IMG/VR virus record: IMGVR_UViG_3300037244_000020
Location: 1 to 64,000 of that record
From: a virus
Direction: 5' to 3' (one strand)
DNA: 64,000 nucleotides
Shown here: piece by piece, positions 3,863 through 41,420 of the stretch
How positions within the stretch are numbered: position 1 is the first letter of the stretch
Layout: each line of letters starts with the position of its first letter
Position numbers and translations under genes: made by a program
The notes under the pieces: model-generated
The model's database searches: none
Seen by the model: only the letters and a program-made list of their open reading frames with translations
What the model was told of the DNA's origin: nothing

Positions 3863-4155
3863 GCGTAGGCTCCCAGCGCGTTCGGTTTTGCTACAAACAC
3901 ATGCCAGACGAAGCCGCCCTCCGTCTGGAACGTGCCGATGTAGTCGCTAAAACCGATGCCGTCTGGAACTTCCCAGCCGGTGCCGATGACCGCCACGAGA
4001 CGCGCCTCTTGGGCGTTCTCGTCGTCAACGAGCGCCCAGAGTACCGGCGCTCCTCGCTGCGTATGGACGCACAGGATGTCTGCGTTTCGGGGCATCATGA
4101 CGGTGAATTCCGCAGCGCCGCTAGGGTCTAATGAATACTTGTGGATGGTGCGCAT
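3859..4155 (-). CDS. conserved phage protein (DUF7352-like)
   Basis: MRTIHKY...LWALVD...YIGTFQ...FVWHVF pattern; 4-nt overlap with next gene. Confidence 0.65.
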   Translation of the reverse strand: MRTIHKYSLDPSGAAEFTVMMPRNADILCVHTQRGAPVLWALVDDENAQEARLVAVIGTGWEVPDGIGFSDYIGTFQTEGGFVWHVFVAKPNALGAYA

Positions 4156-4167
4156 GGTGTGGGTAGT

Positions 4168-4566
4168 TTAAAGGTCGACAAAATCCGGTTCGATCAGGTC
4201 TTCATTCCCGATCGTCACCAGAAACTCAATGAATTGTTCGCGGTCCATCACGCGGGCCGACTTCTCCAAGCCGCCCGTCGAAAACGTGCCCGCCTCAAGG
4301 ATGTAAGCGCGCGCCTTATCCGTCAGCCGCATCGGTACTGCGTAAGGCTTGAGCTTAGGCAGCGTCTCGATTGGGTCGTAAAGCGCTTCGACGCCTTCCG
4401 CCGTGATCAGCGTCACGCGCGCTGGGCGCCCCGTCGCACCCCCCATAATGTCAAGGTGGCGGGCGTACTTCGCATGCGAGCGCGCGATACGCCCCCGGTA
4501 GCTCGAATACACGTCGCGCATGTGCTTGTCGCGATGGATGTCCTGCAGATTGAACCATTTCGTCAT
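4168..4566 (-). CDS. hypothetical phage protein
   Basis: 132-aa ORF, GGAG RBS, abuts neighbours. Confidence 0.7.
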   Translation of the reverse strand: MTKWFNLQDIHRDKHMRDVYSSYRGRIARSHAKYARHLDIMGGATGRPARVTLITAEGVEALYDPIETLPKLKPYAVPMRLTDKARAYILEAGTFSTGGLEKSARVMDREQFIEFLVTIGNEDLIEPDFVDL

Positions 4567-4931
4567 TAGTTATTTTCTCCTTGAGTCTCTTCTTCAATCC
4601 AGCGGTCGATTTTGCGCAGCAGCGCTGCACAGCGCGCCTCAACCTTGTAGCGCAAGGCGCGTAATGCCCGCAGGCGGGTGCTGTACAGCGCCTTGGGGTT
4701 TTGGGTGGTTGTGCGATCCGTGTAGCCTACAGCGTGGCTTACGCTGCTGGAACACGCCACTTCAACTCGGGCGCTGTCGGACAGTTCGCCAACAATCGCA
4801 AACCCCGTGGATAACTCTCGGGATAGCGCCTGCGGGTGTGGCGGTATTACGTCAGGCTCAACCGGCGACGTGCGACGCAGGGCTGCTTCCGTCAGCAGCG
4901 CTTCCATCCGCGCCTTCTCGACCTTGGTCAT
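4566..4931 (-). CDS. hypothetical phage protein
   Basis: Start trimmed to MTKVEK (ATGA overlap). Confidence 0.65.
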   Translation of the reverse strand: MTKVEKARMEALLTEAALRRTSPVEPDVIPPHPQALSRELSTGFAIVGELSDSARVEVACSSSVSHAVGYTDRTTTQNPKALYSTRLRALRALRYKVEARCAALLRKIDRWIEEETQGENN

Positions 4932-36509: not shown

Positions 36510-37028
36510 TTAGACGTGTTTCCAAGTCTTGCGCGTGCGGATCGCGTGGACAGTCACATTCGACACACTGTAGCGCGCGCCCAACACTCTGTTCGTGTCC
36601 CTTGACAAACGAATATCCCTCACATCCTGATCTGTCAGCGACGATTTGCCGGACCGTTCGCCTCGTAGCGCCTGGCGGCACGTTGCAGCAGTCTGTATAG
36701 CGTCTGCGTGCGTTCCCCAGCGAAGGTTGCTGATGCGATTGTCCGCGTAATCACCATTGGCGTGCAAGCCTGATAAGCCATCAGGACACGCGCCTGAAAA
36801 CGCTTCCAACACTAAGCGATGAACCAGAAACCGCTGAGTCACGCTGTCTTTGCACAGTGTTACCTGCCAACGACCTTGATTGTTCTTGCCAGGTTTCAGC
36901 AGTTGCTTCGGTTTGCGTGTGCCAGATGCTGTCGCTTCGGCGGTCAGTCTAACCAAGCTGCGAACACGACCATCGTCGCTGACCTGGTACAGACCGATGT
37001 AGCTGATAACGTCTCGCCATTGTTCCAT
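36510..37028 (-). CDS. NUMOD4-HNH homing endonuclease (possibly degenerate)
   Basis: EQWRDV..GLYQVSDDGRVRS; VHRLVLEAF..H.NG..DNRISNLRWGT; usual terminal Asn apparently replaced (HADA). Confidence 0.85.
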   Translation of the reverse strand: MEQWRDVISYIGLYQVSDDGRVRSLVRLTAEATASGTRKPKQLLKPGKNNQGRWQVTLCKDSVTQRFLVHRLVLEAFSGACPDGLSGLHANGDYADNRISNLRWGTHADAIQTAATCRQALRGERSGKSSLTDQDVRDIRLSRDTNRVLGARYSVSNVTVHAIRTRKTWKHV

Positions 37029-37109: not shown

Positions 37110-37474
37110 CATATGTGTTTGTCTGTGTTAAACCTATGTCAAACGCATTTGTCATAAACAAGTTTATCGCTCAATCGTTCTGTGCAGCGCATTTCGCGCT
37201 TGCACACGTCTATAAACGGTGTATACTTAGTTCATTGACAACGGACTGACCTAAGCAATGACATGAATAGATTGATCATGACCTCGATCGATGCTGACCT
37301 GACCAAACGATAGCTTTGGCAGTCACGATGACCGTGTTGCGGTCATCGATGCGCTCGGCCTACCCCCACCCCCCTTTTTTGCTCGGCGCGGCGCGTGGTA
37401 TCCTCGCGTCTGTGGTATGTCAAGTTTTTCGAGTTTGTCACATTACAATAAGCTTACAGCGGGGTAACGAGAGC

Positions 37475-38203
37475 ATGACCTACGATTGCAAAGATCTGAC
37501 CGAGCGGCAGCGCAAGTTCTGCGAAGAGTACATCGTAGACCTGAACGGACGCGCCGCTGCCGAGCGCGCTGGCTATGCCCCGAACGGCGGCCAGGTCACG
37601 AACCTTCTCAAGCTCCCGCACGTCAAGGCATACGTCGACTATCTCAGCGACGAGCGCGCCAAGCGTGTCGGCGTGACTTCCGACTTCATCCTAGAGCGCC
37701 TGCTCGCCATGGCGACGGTCGACGTCAACGACCTCGTCCAGTACCGACGCCACTGTTGTCGACACTGCTACGGCGAGGACTTCCGATATCAGTGGACCGA
37801 CGCTGAGTACGAGCGCGCCGTCAAAGAGGCCACGGACCGTCACCTCCCCATCCCCGAGGCACCTGGCGGAAACGGCTACGACCGCACCAAAGACGCCAAC
37901 CCCGACTGCCCAGAGTGCCGTGGACAGGGTAAAGGCGAGGTGTTCGCTGCCGACACGCGCAAGATGTCACCTGAAGCGAAGATGTTGTACGATGGCGCCA
38001 AAGTGGGCCGCGACGGCTTGGAGATCAAGACGCTCGATCGGCTGCGCATTTACGAACTGATCGGTAAGCACATCGGCATGTTCAAGGACAAGGTCGAGCA
38101 CAGTGGCAAGATCGAGAATACCGGCCCGGTGCTGAACTTGACACTCGCTGCGCCGCCGGGGACGAAGATCGCGGAAAATTCCCAAGAACCCACCAAGGAG
38201 TGA
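37475..38203 (+). CDS. terS: terminase small subunit with Zn-finger insertion
   Basis: LTERQRKFCEEYIVDLNGRAAAERAGY; CCRHCYG..CPECRGQG; ELIGKHIGMF. Confidence 0.9.
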   Translation: MTYDCKDLTERQRKFCEEYIVDLNGRAAAERAGYAPNGGQVTNLLKLPHVKAYVDYLSDERAKRVGVTSDFILERLLAMATVDVNDLVQYRRHCCRHCYGEDFRYQWTDAEYERAVKEATDRHLPIPEAPGGNGYDRTKDANPDCPECRGQGKGEVFAADTRKMSPEAKMLYDGAKVGRDGLEIKTLDRLRIYELIGKHIGMFKDKVEHSGKIENTGPVLNLTLAAPPGTKIAENSQEPTKE

Positions 38204-38472: not shown

Positions 38473-38910
38473 ATGTCCCGCGTCCCTCCCAGAAGCTGGA
38501 ACGAAACGTTCGGCACAGCCTACGAGCACCTCAAAGCTGGCCGACGTGCAGCGCGCCTTGGCTGGAACAGCAACCGGGTGTGGCTCGAAGCCCTAAGCGA
38601 TACCGCGACCGTCATCCTGCATAAGGACGGCGTGCGCACCGACTGGGTGCCGGATGCGGGCGATCTCATCAGCAACGATTGGCATGTCTTCCCACCCCTT
38701 GAAAGGAGCTTAACCATGACCACCACGCCTAGCAGAGAAGCCCGCGAAGTAGCAGCAAGCCGCCTTAGTCCCGCCAGCTACGCGAACGTCGACGACTATA
38801 TCGCGGCCGTCGACAAGCTCGCTCGGTATATCGAGCATGGCAACTTTAAGGACACCGACAACCAGCCACACGTCACCGCAGCAGTCACGAATGTGATGAA
38901 TGTTCGGTAA
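38473..38910 (+). CDS. DUF2829 / Tad2-like protein with C-terminal extension
   Basis: TFGTAYEHLKAGRRAARLGWN...WVPDAGDLISNDW. Confidence 0.75.
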   Translation: MSRVPPRSWNETFGTAYEHLKAGRRAARLGWNSNRVWLEALSDTATVILHKDGVRTDWVPDAGDLISNDWHVFPPLERSLTMTTTPSREAREVAASRLSPASYANVDDYIAAVDKLARYIEHGNFKDTDNQPHVTAAVTNVMNVR

Positions 38911-38933
38911 ATAACCCCGATTTAACCTCAACG

Positions 38934-38957
38934 AAACCGCCCACTGAGGCGGTTTCA
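38934..38957 (+). terminator. hairpin after the Tad2-like gene
   Basis: GAAACCGCC-CACTGA-GGCGGTTTC. Confidence 0.55.
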
Positions 38958-38973
38958 TGCTATTATAGCAACG

Positions 38974-39022
38974 CACGTCTAGGGTCATTCCCGAAAAGCT
39001 GGCTATCCACCGGCCTGACGTG
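38974..39022 (+). ncRNA. cloverleaf leader RNA (C4-antisense-like), copy 2
   Basis: CACGTC/GACGTG closing stem; GTCATTCCCGA complementary to TCGGGAATGAC over the ATG; TATCCAC complementary to GTGGATA. Confidence 0.6.
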
Positions 39023-39055
39023 TCTCCTCAGTGGATATCGATTGGGAAATCGGGA

Positions 39056-39907
39056 ATGACAGACCAGACAAACTGGCCCAAACGCGGTGACGGCATTTGT
39101 GGCATCTACGCGATTGAAAATCTCATCGACGGGAAGTTCTACGTCGGGCAGTCTGCGGACATGAGATCAAGGTGGGACGTTCACCTTTATATGCTCAGAA
39201 AAGGAACGGCGAGCACGAAATTGTTGCGCGCATGGCGAAAGCACGGTGCGGAGAATTTCAGGTTCTTTGCCGTGGAAGAATGCTCAGTCGAAGATCTTAC
39301 AGCGCGAGAGCAAGCGTGGATCGACACGTTCGACGCTGTGAAGAAGGGCTACAATATCAGTCCCTTGGCGAATTGCACGCGCGGGGTGAAGCACACGGCC
39401 GAGGCCCGCGCTAACATGTCAAAGGCGCAACTTGAGATAAACTCACGCCCCGGCGCAAAGGAGCGACGAGTAGCTGTGGCAACGAAGGCTTGGGAAGACC
39501 CGGATGCTTTAGCCCGAAAGAGCGCGGCCAGCAAGAAATCAAGGAACAAGCCAGAGGCAAAGGCCAGGCAATCCAAGGTATCAAAGGACCAGTGGGCAGA
39601 CCCGGAAGGCAGGGAGCGTCGTCTGGATGCCTTAGTAAAGTGGTGGGCAGACCCTGACGCGAAAGCTAGTAGGCTAATGCTCCTGCAGAGTGGACGCACC
39701 CCAGAGGTAGAGGCGCAAAGGAAGGAGGCCGCAAAGGCAGCGAGGAGAGCCAGTGCGATCCTCGCTGTGGAAGACGTCTTGGAGATCCGCGCCAGATACG
39801 TATTCCGATGTCCGGCAAATGGAGGGAAAGCACTCGCAAAGGAGTTCGGAGTGTCCAACACGTACATCAGCAACATTATCGTGCGAAAGGTTTGGAAGGA
39901 CATCTAA
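39056..39907 (+). CDS. free-standing GIY-YIG homing endonuclease
   Basis: GIYAIENLIDGKFYVGQS..RW..H..REQAWID..GYN; NUMOD3-like KHTAEARANMSKA; C-terminal HTH. Confidence 0.9.
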   Translation: MTDQTNWPKRGDGICGIYAIENLIDGKFYVGQSADMRSRWDVHLYMLRKGTASTKLLRAWRKHGAENFRFFAVEECSVEDLTAREQAWIDTFDAVKKGYNISPLANCTRGVKHTAEARANMSKAQLEINSRPGAKERRVAVATKAWEDPDALARKSAASKKSRNKPEAKARQSKVSKDQWADPEGRERRLDALVKWWADPDAKASRLMLLQSGRTPEVEAQRKEAAKAARRASAILAVEDVLEIRARYVFRCPANGGKALAKEFGVSNTYISNIIVRKVWKDI

Positions 39908-39947
39908 TGCTACAATGCGGGAAATTAAGCTACAAAGGCTCCCCGCA

Positions 39948-41420
39948 ATGAATTTGAGTCTTCATCAACGCCAATCAGAAGCTTTCACTTCGAAAGCGAC
40001 GGAGATTTTGTATGGGGGCGGGTGGTGCCTCTGCTAGAAGGTTTGGCAGAGGCACCACCCGCCTTCTTCAATGAGCGCCGCAGGCGGAGGCAAGTCCCAT
40101 TTGCTTCGCGTAGCGTCGATCGCATGGTGTGCCGACATTCCGGGCATCCAAATAGCCCTGTTCCGCAGGCTCAGTGACGACATCACGAAGAACCATTTAA
40201 CTGGGGTTTCCGGGTATCCCGAGCTTCTGGCCGACTGGGTGAAGGCAGGGCATGTGAAAATCAATTTTTCGGCCCGTACAATAACTTTTTGGAACGGGTC
40301 GAAGATCCATCTTTGTCACTGCCAGTACGAGTCCGACGTATCGAAGTATCAGGGAGCAGAGTTCCAAGTTGAAATGTTTGACGAGGGAACCCACTTCTCC
40401 GAGACCATCTACAGGTACCTGCGAGGGCGGCTGCGCATGGGCGCACTGAAACTCCCGGAAAAGTATGTTGGGATGTTTCCCCGGATTTTGATAGGGTCGA
40501 ATCCTGGATCGGTCGGGCATGCCTGGGTCAAAGCGTCTTTCGTTGACATGGCGCCCCCGATGGAACTGGTGCAAATGCCGAAAAACGAAGGGGGTCTCAT
40601 TCGGCAGTTCATACCCGCGAAACTGGAAGACAACCCGACGTTGATGGAAAGCGATCCGATGTATGCGGATCGCTTGGAGGGTCTCGGTCGACCTGAACTC
40701 GTCAAAGCCCTTCGTGACGGGGACTGGAACATAGTTGCAGGGGGTATGTTCGACGACGTGTTCTCTACTAAGCACCAAGTTCTTGCCCCCTTCGAGATTC
40801 CTCGCACCTGGAGGATCGACAGGTCATTTGATTGGGGTTCAGGAAAACCCTTCGCGGTGTTGTGGTTCGCCGAGTCAGACGGGTCGTCCGTTCGCCTTGC
40901 AGACGGCTCCGAGCGTAACTTCCCACGAGGGTCGATCTTCCAGATCTCTGAGTGGTATGGCAGTAACGGCAAACCCAATGAGGGTCTGCGCATGATGAAT
41001 GCGGAAATTGCACGCGGCGTGAAGGAGCGCGATTTAGCTATGAAGCGCATCGTCCATGCTGGCCCCGGCGACAACTCGATAAATGACGTAATCAACGGCA
41101 CGAGCATTGCAGACGAGATGGCGCGTGCGCCGAATTACATCCGCTGGACGCCATCTGACAAGAACCCAGGCAGCCGGAAGCACGGGTGGGACATCCTGCG
41201 AAAGCTGCTGAAGAACGCAATTGATAGGCCGCTGGAAGAGCCGGGTTTCTACATTTTCGACACCTGTCGAAACACGATCCGTACGCTTCCGGTCTTACCT
41301 CGCCACGCCACCAAAGACGGGGATCTTGACTCCGACGCGGAAGACCATATTGCAGATGCAATTCGCTACCGTGTCTCCGCCAAAAAACGCACGATGACCG
41401 TCAGCGGCCTCGCTATATAA
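39948..41420 (+). CDS. terL: terminase large subunit, interrupted at Walker A by a 57-nt in-frame insert containing TAG (40035-40037)
   Basis: 39948 frame gives ..EAFTSKATEILYGG; same frame resumes AAGGGKS; FDEGTHF Walker B, GSNPG, DWG and EDHIADAIRY nuclease motifs. Confidence 0.88.
40020..40076 (+). other. 57-nt intervening sequence (candidate ribosomal bypass element)
   Basis: 18-bp perfect stem 40017-40034/40046-40063, TAG in loop, GCG at both junctions. Confidence 0.75.

Follow-up and report, generated by a model that had tools for sequence, protein, structure and literature searches.

A coding gap in the Walker A codons of a phage large terminase gene and its association with neighboring nuclease genes

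In this study, the region around the large terminase gene (terL) of the phage record IMGVR_UViG_3300037244_000020 was analyzed in a stretch of 64,000 nucleotides (nt), referred to below as the window, which makes up the first 64 kb of this complete 90,837-bp IMG/VR record with direct terminal repeats. The terL codons for the Walker A motif (P-loop) were found to be split by a 57-nt coding gap carrying a hairpin and an in-frame stop codon, and a gene for a free-standing GIY-YIG homing endonuclease was found directly upstream. We consider it probable, at roughly 0.55, that the two belong to a linked homing module of the gene 60/MobA kind, situated here in terL. This reading builds on sequence comparisons that established the anatomy of the locus, the co-occurrence of nuclease genes and gaps among relatives, a separate history of terL exon 1 plus gap, and swaps of the nuclease gene. 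Related loci are cited by number (L003 and so on). The main parts of the locus are as follows.

39056-39907, plus strand: gene of a free-standing GIY-YIG homing endonuclease (283 aa if started at ATG 39056), with a reading frame open from GTG 39020
39948-40019, plus strand: terL exon 1, 24 codons (MNLSLH...ATEILYGG), with the take-off codon GGC (40017-40019) at its end
40020-40076, plus strand: coding gap in the Walker A codons, 57 nt, with TAG at 40035-40037 and AGC as the final triplet
40077-41420, plus strand: remainder of terL, AAGGGKSH... through the stop codon; Pfam Terminase_6N

As in the relatives, ATG 39948 is the start of terL, and the frame runs through ...ATEILYGG into the insert, after which the same frame resumes at AAGGGKSH; in more than 100 relatives, LYGG-AAGGGKSH is uninterrupted. 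Excision of 40020-40076 yields LYGGAAGGGKSH, matching these relatives, and the terL body shares 60-71% identity with over 100 full-length TerL proteins. Gene callers shorten the gene (P0002, 449 aa). It is the sole terL copy in the 90.8-kb genome, and no second copy of its 5' end was found in the window. The insert in the Walker A codons had been noticed in a first-pass annotation made from the letters of the window, and it was borne out by the exact restoration of the motif in the only terL of a complete genome. The gap hairpin (40014-40066) begins at the last Gly codon and has a perfect 18-bp stem, which extends to 25 pairs. The fold has an energy of -52.4 kcal/mol (z -7.7), equaled in stability by none of 200 shuffled sequences, and the hairpin occurs only once in the genome. 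The TAG lies within the stem, close to the loop and 5 codons after the take-off codon. No signature of a group I or group II intron or of an intein was found in the 57-nt insert, and Rfam gave only chance sub-threshold matches to microRNA hairpins at 40011-40069.

The nuclease open reading frame (ORF) matched the Pfam family PF01541, GIY-YIG, with an E value of 1.8e-11 and 44.6 bits (cutoff 22.6) over profile positions 2-78 of 78, as well as four homing-endonuclease PHROGs (phrog_314, E 3.8e-27; 7168; 5123; 19446). The GIY, YVG, Arg, Glu, and Asn motif residues are visible in the translation, an assignment made by eye and not from an alignment. ATG 39056 is favored as the start because its context is conserved in the related locus L084. 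The stop codon (39905-39907) lies 113 nt before the insert, so the earlier observation of an intact GIY-YIG gene ending about 110 nt upstream of it held up. Residues 230-283 weakly resemble the tail of HNH-type homing nucleases (phrog_59, E 1.6e-4; tblastn, E 0.045-0.19), and no Pfam domain was found in the C-terminal part. Among cultured phages, GIY-YIG homologues were present in 544 records; they share 25-42% identity over the catalytic domain and carry annotations as homing, Seg, or intron endonucleases. The IMG/VR search yielded no close relative of the protein, the maximum among cultured phages being 42% identity, and the gene itself was absent across all of the approximately 260 fetched terL loci. 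A second homing-type nuclease gene (NUMOD4 plus HNH_3; 36510-37028, minus strand) lies just upstream of terS in the window; the tail of its product weakly resembles the C-terminus of the GIY-YIG protein, and a close homologue is located in L006, likewise upstream of terS.

Approximately 260 terL loci from IMG/VR, metagenomes, and genomes were screened for gaps, a set to which about 15 TerL calls truncated at the N-terminus did not contribute their contigs. Six non-redundant carriers, including the window, were found, with gaps at two sites 15 nt apart (^, insertion point):

Site 1, LYGG^AAGGGKS: window, 57 nt
Site 1, LYGG^AAGGGKS: L003, 54 nt
Site 2, GGG^KSH: L015, L017/L018, and L072, 42 nt each
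Site 2, GGG^KSH: L025, 41 nt, frame-changing

The L003 gap is homologous to that of the window, being 93% identical, and it shows a compensatory change in the stem (GGC..GCC to GGT..ACC). Every gap is preceded by a GGY codon and has a strong hairpin and an in-frame stop codon, with TAG, TGA, and TAA all in use; the stem-loop begins at the take-off codon, and the stop follows 2 to 7 codons later. All gaps end in AGC, AGT, or GAC, and exact skipping restores the P-loop in all six carriers. The take-off and landing triplets are GGC/AGC in the window, GGT/AGC in L003, L017, and L072, GGT/GAC in L015, and GGT/AGT in L025. Matched alternatives would delete P-loop residues, and none is available at site 2. 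Because the 41-nt gap of L025 shifts the frame and all three stop codons are used, plain stop readthrough and a reassigned stop codon are excluded. Two other roles were considered and rejected: that of a terminator for the hairpin, since the U-run is absent at site 2, and that of a translation restart at ATG 40071, since this ATG is not conserved in L003. In the site-2 gaps (L015 5085-5147, L017 3843-3905, L072 5076-5138, and L025 4948-5009), an outer helix pairs the first with the last gap bases and places the take-off codon beside the resume codon; GGAGG is present in the 3' arm, 7-9 nt before the landing triplet. In the tree, the site-2 carriers are scattered among gap-free relatives inside one clade.

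Exact-pattern scans of IMG/VR for both gap types revealed no carriers beyond the known loci. A metagenome scan (80 loci) gave no additional carrier of either type, a genome scan (76 loci) gave only L166, which is the same contig as L018, and none of the top 60 TerL matches from cultured phages was interrupted. L130 (1745-1790), a locus from the metagenome scan, has an 8-nt frame-breaking insert that starts with TAG (GGG TAGCTGGC GGT) and separates the codons for the second and third Gly of GGGKS. Either a sequencing error or a coding gap in miniature may explain it, and no nuclease was found upstream of it. About 15 of the 120 best TerL database matches (P0005, P0012-14, P0031, P0033, P0035, P0043, P0080-82, P0084, P0087, P0090, and others) have their start immediately past Walker A, and several of these calls come from long contigs. 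These truncated calls may hold further coding gaps; P0011 was rejected as such a candidate, being a contig-edge fragment. Three distant TerL relatives with approximately 41% identity, L247 (3831-5200), L248, and L250 (2385-3800), have an insert of approximately 325 aa in Walker A at GGGK^S, 3 nt from gap site 2. The insert begins with Ala and ends with THN, and it is apparently an intein. Walker A DNA thus seems to attract other selfish inserts as well, a P-loop intein in distant relatives being the case at hand. The inteins of P0020 and P0086 were rejected as Walker A inserts, since they lie at other terL sites.

A nuclease gene was located directly upstream of terL in 4 of the 6 gap carriers, namely the window, L003, L015, and L072. 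The L003 nuclease belongs to HNH_3 (E 4.7e-13; phrog_99, E 1.7e-63). The upstream ORF of L015 and L072 appears to be a second GIY-YIG nuclease, with a sub-threshold Pfam match (approximately 3e-4), phrog_314 matches of 1e-5 and 2e-4, and visible IYTL...RYVGRT motifs. In these two loci, the terL start recurs as a short repeat upstream of the nuclease, and this repeat is the retained 3' end of terS, which overlaps terL in gap-free relatives. In L017/L018 and L025, terS abuts terL and the gap is present with no intervening nuclease gene. As a control set, approximately 95 gap-free non-redundant loci contributed 234 ORFs from the 1.3 kb upstream of terL. Pfam detected GIY-YIG in none of these ORFs and HNH_3 only in L093, upstream of terS; one more HNH_3 match, 2.7 kb from terL, came from an L006 ORF that had been added by hand from beyond the 1.3-kb range. 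PHROGs added an EndoVII-like nuclease in L084, directly upstream of terL, and in L011, upstream of terS. In the gap-free loci with a recognized terS (about two dozen), terS abuts or overlaps terL with a spacing of -55 to +93 nt, the exceptions being L005 and L006, with small non-nuclease ORFs between the two genes. In Fisher tests, a nuclease directly upstream was significantly associated with the gap (4/6 gap carriers versus 1/95 gap-free loci, p 2e-5), as was any nuclease within 1.3 kb (5/95 gap-free loci, p 4e-4).

The gap and the coding segment before it have a history apart from the rest of terL. Between the window and L003, exon 1 is 85% and the gap 93% identical, versus 60-65% for the following 1.3 kb of terL. 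At conserved residues, the two loci use identical codons in 16/22 cases in exon 1 and in 48/139 downstream (p 9e-4), and this excess in exon 1 is absent when the window is compared with the gap-free L084 (7/17 versus 46/126). In the site-2 clade, the shares of conserved residues with identical codons were as follows.

Both loci with gap: exon 1, 64%; terL body, 48%
One locus with gap: exon 1, 39%; terL body, 54%
Neither locus with gap: exon 1, 59%; terL body, 62%

The terL body of L072 is close to that of the gap-free L019 (244/351), but its exon 1 is foreign (8/26, p 1e-4), and for L017 versus L164 the values were 3/23 in exon 1 and 201/314 in the body (p 2e-6). These counts support a grouping of exon 1 by gap status and not by terL body, the pattern expected from co-conversion. 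It had been proposed at the outset that nuclease and insert co-convert; the joint movement of exon 1 and gap apart from the terL body agrees with this, but the nuclease is not always included, being exchangeable or missing.

Around the nuclease ORF, the following further features were recognized in the window.

38473-38910: Tad2-like gene, upstream neighbor of the terminator-like hairpin
38929-38957, plus strand: left edge of the conserved block, with the terminator-like hairpin AAACCGCC / GGCGGTTT at 38934-38955, 3' of the Tad2-like gene
38958-38966, plus strand: extended -10-like TGCTATTAT before the nuclease leader, a putative promoter element
38967-39055, plus strand: structured leader of the nuclease gene, one fold of which hides the Shine-Dalgarno sequence (SD) and the AUG; int-alpA-like at 38972-39035
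39908-39947, plus strand: terL-proximal extended -10-like TGCTACAAT and 5' untranslated region (UTR), native to terL, with AAAGG preceding ATG 39948

The window, L003, and the gap-free L084 group as a single clade (support of the trio, 0.996) and have in common, upstream of the nuclease ORF, a terminator hairpin, the motif TGCTATTRT, and a structured leader. The left-edge block shows approximately 97% identity across 36 nt in L003 as well as in L084 despite different upstream genes, TGCTATTAT is conserved in both as TGCTATTGT, and the leader is 75-82% identical before three different nuclease ORFs. On the downstream flank, the trio shares a CTACAAT motif and the 5' UTR, 78-85% conserved in L003 and L084. 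The slot between these flanks is occupied by a GIY-YIG gene in the window, an HNH_3 gene in L003, and an EndoVII-like nuclease gene in L084. The last of these (4154-4885, equal to L254 4145-4876; 243 aa) lies upstream of a gap-free terL and matched phrog_1035, endonuclease VII (E 1.9e-11), with no Pfam match; its product has a CxxC pair in the N-terminal part, W..NP motifs that recur, and a tail of the form DH...HEN. BLASTP detected no similarity of the window nuclease to the L084 nuclease or to the L015 nuclease, and a common DNA-binding module, from which a common target might be argued, is therefore lacking. The nuclease ORF is thus exchangeable, with the surrounding frame and the gap persisting.

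The nuclease gene has its own leader RNA, as the first-pass annotation had it. In the fold, GUCAUUCCCGA pairs with UCGGGAAUGAC across the AUG (z -2.6), and the upstream strand sequesters the SD and the AUG. Rfam matched int-alpA at 38972-39035 over the full motif length with 31.9 bits, below the gathering score of 35.8, and the homologous leader of L003 (4396-4459) gave 31.3 bits, also sub-threshold. In an alternative fold, the first strand of the int-alpA hairpin pairs with the SD and AUG of the nuclease gene. The conserved leader could be a riboregulator of nuclease translation. In the 64-kb window, the motif TGCTAYWAT is confined to 38958/38962 and 39908, on either side of the nuclease gene (3 matches versus 0.67 expected), and the pair of flanks may be a duplicated -10 element from the formation of the slot. 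A scan with the generic sigma-70 consensus called neither 38958 nor 39908, the -35 element being missing. The extended -10 at 39908, which had been counted as part of the cassette, is present as a motif, but it goes with terL and not with the GIY-YIG gene, because TGCTACAAT is conserved before terL in L003 and L084 behind other nucleases, including the gap-free case.

The gene order is terS (37316-38203), a small ORF, the Tad2-like gene, the terminator-like hairpin, the GIY-YIG ORF, and terL, with the portal gene beyond. Both possible source runs of the record are peat metagenomes. The insert-bearing stretch was recovered from two peat runs at depths of 63 and 164 on identical contigs and free of variants; since both runs may be the source of the window DNA, they are not independent. 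Two further soil studies (runs X3 and X4) contained fragments identical to parts of the nuclease gene and of the terL 5' end, none of which reaches over the insert. No RNA run containing the phage was listed.

Read as a homing module, the locus would work as follows. During mixed infection, the slot nuclease would attack gap-free terL copies of related phages, cutting within or close to the highly conserved Walker A DNA. Repair from the donor would copy the gap and exon 1 every time, and the nuclease gene would be co-copied if the conversion tract extended 60-120 nt further upstream; gaps without a nuclease would be explained by short tracts that copy the gap and exon 1 only. We infer the cut site at gap-free Walker A DNA, and also an immunity in which the gap disrupts the recognition site and so protects its carrier. 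TerL would be made by exact skipping of the gap, from GGC 40017-40019 to GCC 40077, for which ribosomal bypass is the likeliest route; such a hop is favored, with removal at the RNA level as the alternative. A wider version, which we put forward only tentatively, is that the terL P-loop hairpin gaps are a portable immunity module spread by nuclease-triggered conversion among unrelated soil phages, with at least four unrelated nucleases and two sites, and are skipped by a structure-guided hop without a codon match, as a second and mechanistically distinct family of long bypass.

Several observations weigh against the homing-module reading. The independent associations of nuclease and gap number only about three, and for L015 and L072 the nuclease assignment consists of the sub-threshold Pfam match and the PHROG match. 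L084 has a slot nuclease and no gap, L017/L018 and L025 have a gap and no nuclease, and the same gap sits behind two unrelated nucleases, the GIY-YIG of the window and the HNH_3 of L003, so it need not protect against the window GIY-YIG. The unmatched take-off and landing triplets make simple tRNA re-pairing doubtful. Part of the similarity in exon 1 and gap could reflect selection on RNA structure or skipping signals and not recent transfer, and some sister pairs have low support in the tree (0.38-0.63). The first-pass annotation had joined the nuclease and the insert in a single cassette and had pointed to a co-occurrence survey in related genomes. The linkage emerged clearly from that survey (4/6 versus 1/95, p 2e-5), but strict one-to-one pairing was contradicted by L003, L084, L017/L018, and L025, in which a gap or a nuclease also occurs separately or with another partner.

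These same exceptions are what would be seen if slot and gap were independent elements lying side by side, the slot being a landing pad for nucleases that target elsewhere and the gap a vertically inherited recoding or regulatory device of terL, such as a throttle or timer for TerL. In favor of this, the leader and the terL promoter motif are conserved whatever the gap status, gap and slot nuclease each occur alone (L017/L018 and L025; L084), one gap is shared behind GIY-YIG and HNH_3, and the phage has other homing-type nucleases elsewhere, for example the HNH_3 plus NUMOD4 gene at 36510-37028. We nevertheless regard independence as unlikely: the enrichment of 4/6 versus 1/95 comes from two separate clades and three unrelated nucleases, the site-2 gaps are patchy among close relatives, and the difference in history between exon 1 plus gap and the terL body is not predicted by vertical inheritance.

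Rather improbable, in our estimate, is that the gap is a relic immunity, guarding against an earlier slot occupant or against nucleases of co-infecting phages, with the present GIY-YIG gene being a later replacement that has another cut site, and with the cassette no longer a functional unit. Three unrelated nucleases in the slot of three sister phages with a conserved frame, and a gap 93% identical in two carriers with different nucleases, would fit such a course, and in gene 60 relatives the nuclease has been replaced and the gap retained (bioRxiv 10.1101/2022.08.31.505936). However, a nuclease homing into the slot needs a cut site within co-conversion distance, the P-loop DNA 113 nt off is the obvious candidate, and nothing indicates another target. 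That terL is simply broken, as a pseudogene or an assembly artifact with an irrelevant nuclease neighbor, would account for the in-frame TAG within an essential motif and for the shortened gene call (P0002), but it is hardly credible in a complete genome with terminal repeats and a single terL, given identical contigs from two peat runs at depths of 63 and 164 (both possibly the source of the DNA), an exon 1 that is in frame and conserved at the protein level, a homologous gap in L003 with a compensatory stem change, and exact restoration of the P-loop in five further gap-bearing relatives.

The closest known counterpart of the homing-module reading is the following. The MobA element of phage T4 is associated with the 50-nt translational bypass of gene 60. 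As in that system, a homing nuclease gene here adjoins a short untranslatable hairpin insert in an essential gene, at a highly conserved coding stretch; the coding segment that separates nuclease and gap moves along with the element, and the nuclease is swapped or lost while the gap stays, patchily among close relatives. The gap of the MobA/gene 60 element prevents MobA from cutting its own DNA (Manning & Atkins, bioRxiv 10.1101/2022.08.31.505936), and the element brings its own copy of the adjacent coding segment; in some clades MobA is replaced by GIY-YIG or VSR types, in others the nuclease is lost and the gap kept, and the take-off and landing codons are matched in all gene 60-type cases (same source). 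In contrast, the window has a GIY-YIG nuclease and not an HNH enzyme like MobA, and the host gene is terL, at its P-loop, and not a topoisomerase gene, so that gene and nuclease family, sequence homology aside, set the systems apart. In addition, terL is not broken up into two proteins, each with its own start and added tails; the hairpin accounts for the greater part of the gap (47/57 nt), the stop codon lies 5 codons past the take-off codon instead of adjacent to it, and the triplets are unmatched (GGC versus AGC), the last being a further point against the proposed likeness. Because gene, nuclease, protein layout, hairpin, stop position, and codons all differ, the window case falls outside the gene 60 element family.

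Free-standing GIY-YIG homing endonucleases are known from T-even phages (SegA-G), together with I-TevI, and take part in intronless homing. Like these, the window protein has an N-terminal GIY-YIG domain and an extended linker, followed by a putative C-terminal DNA-binding tail (a weak match in this case); its gene lies between two conserved genes, has a start codon predicted to be sequestered by leader RNA, and has its presumed target in a neighboring conserved gene within co-conversion distance. It differs in that its identity to any homologue is at most 42% over the catalytic domain and in that immunity would stem from a 57-nt insert and not from point polymorphisms. Inteins, too, occur in the P-loop of phage TerL. 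They resemble the gaps as selfish insertions at the same few Walker A codons (GGGK^S, 3 nt from site 2), but an intein of approximately 325 aa is removed as protein, and a 57-nt gap with a stop codon is not removable in this way. In the terminase gene of the Streptomyces phage Hau3, a candidate bypass of 10-nt UUA blocks has been described, with the rare UUA codon as trigger and a proposed regulatory role (PMC10732093). Hau3 is similar in having short non-coding blocks in the large terminase gene that must be skipped to give the enzyme; its blocks are 10 nt long, at other positions, and without a nuclease neighbor (PMC10732093). Hau3 was the only published proposal of a terminase bypass that we found, and no published description of a terL Walker A gap combined with a nuclease was found.

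Phages of this kind are mis-annotated because gene callers truncate gapped terminase genes, about 15 of the 120 best TerL matches starting after Walker A. For efficient long-range bypass by ribosomes in connection with a homing nuclease, a single natural family is established, namely T4 gene 60/MobA with its homologues, which all lie in topoisomerase genes. If the reading given here is true, the terL gaps would be a second family in another essential gene and would allow a test of which bypass signals are general, for which several sequence variants, two insertion sites, unmatched codons, and interchangeable nucleases provide a basis. They would likewise permit a test of whether coding gaps arise as immunity against homing nucleases, and of competition among selfish elements for a single conserved target, the P-loop DNA, which is also a target of an intein.

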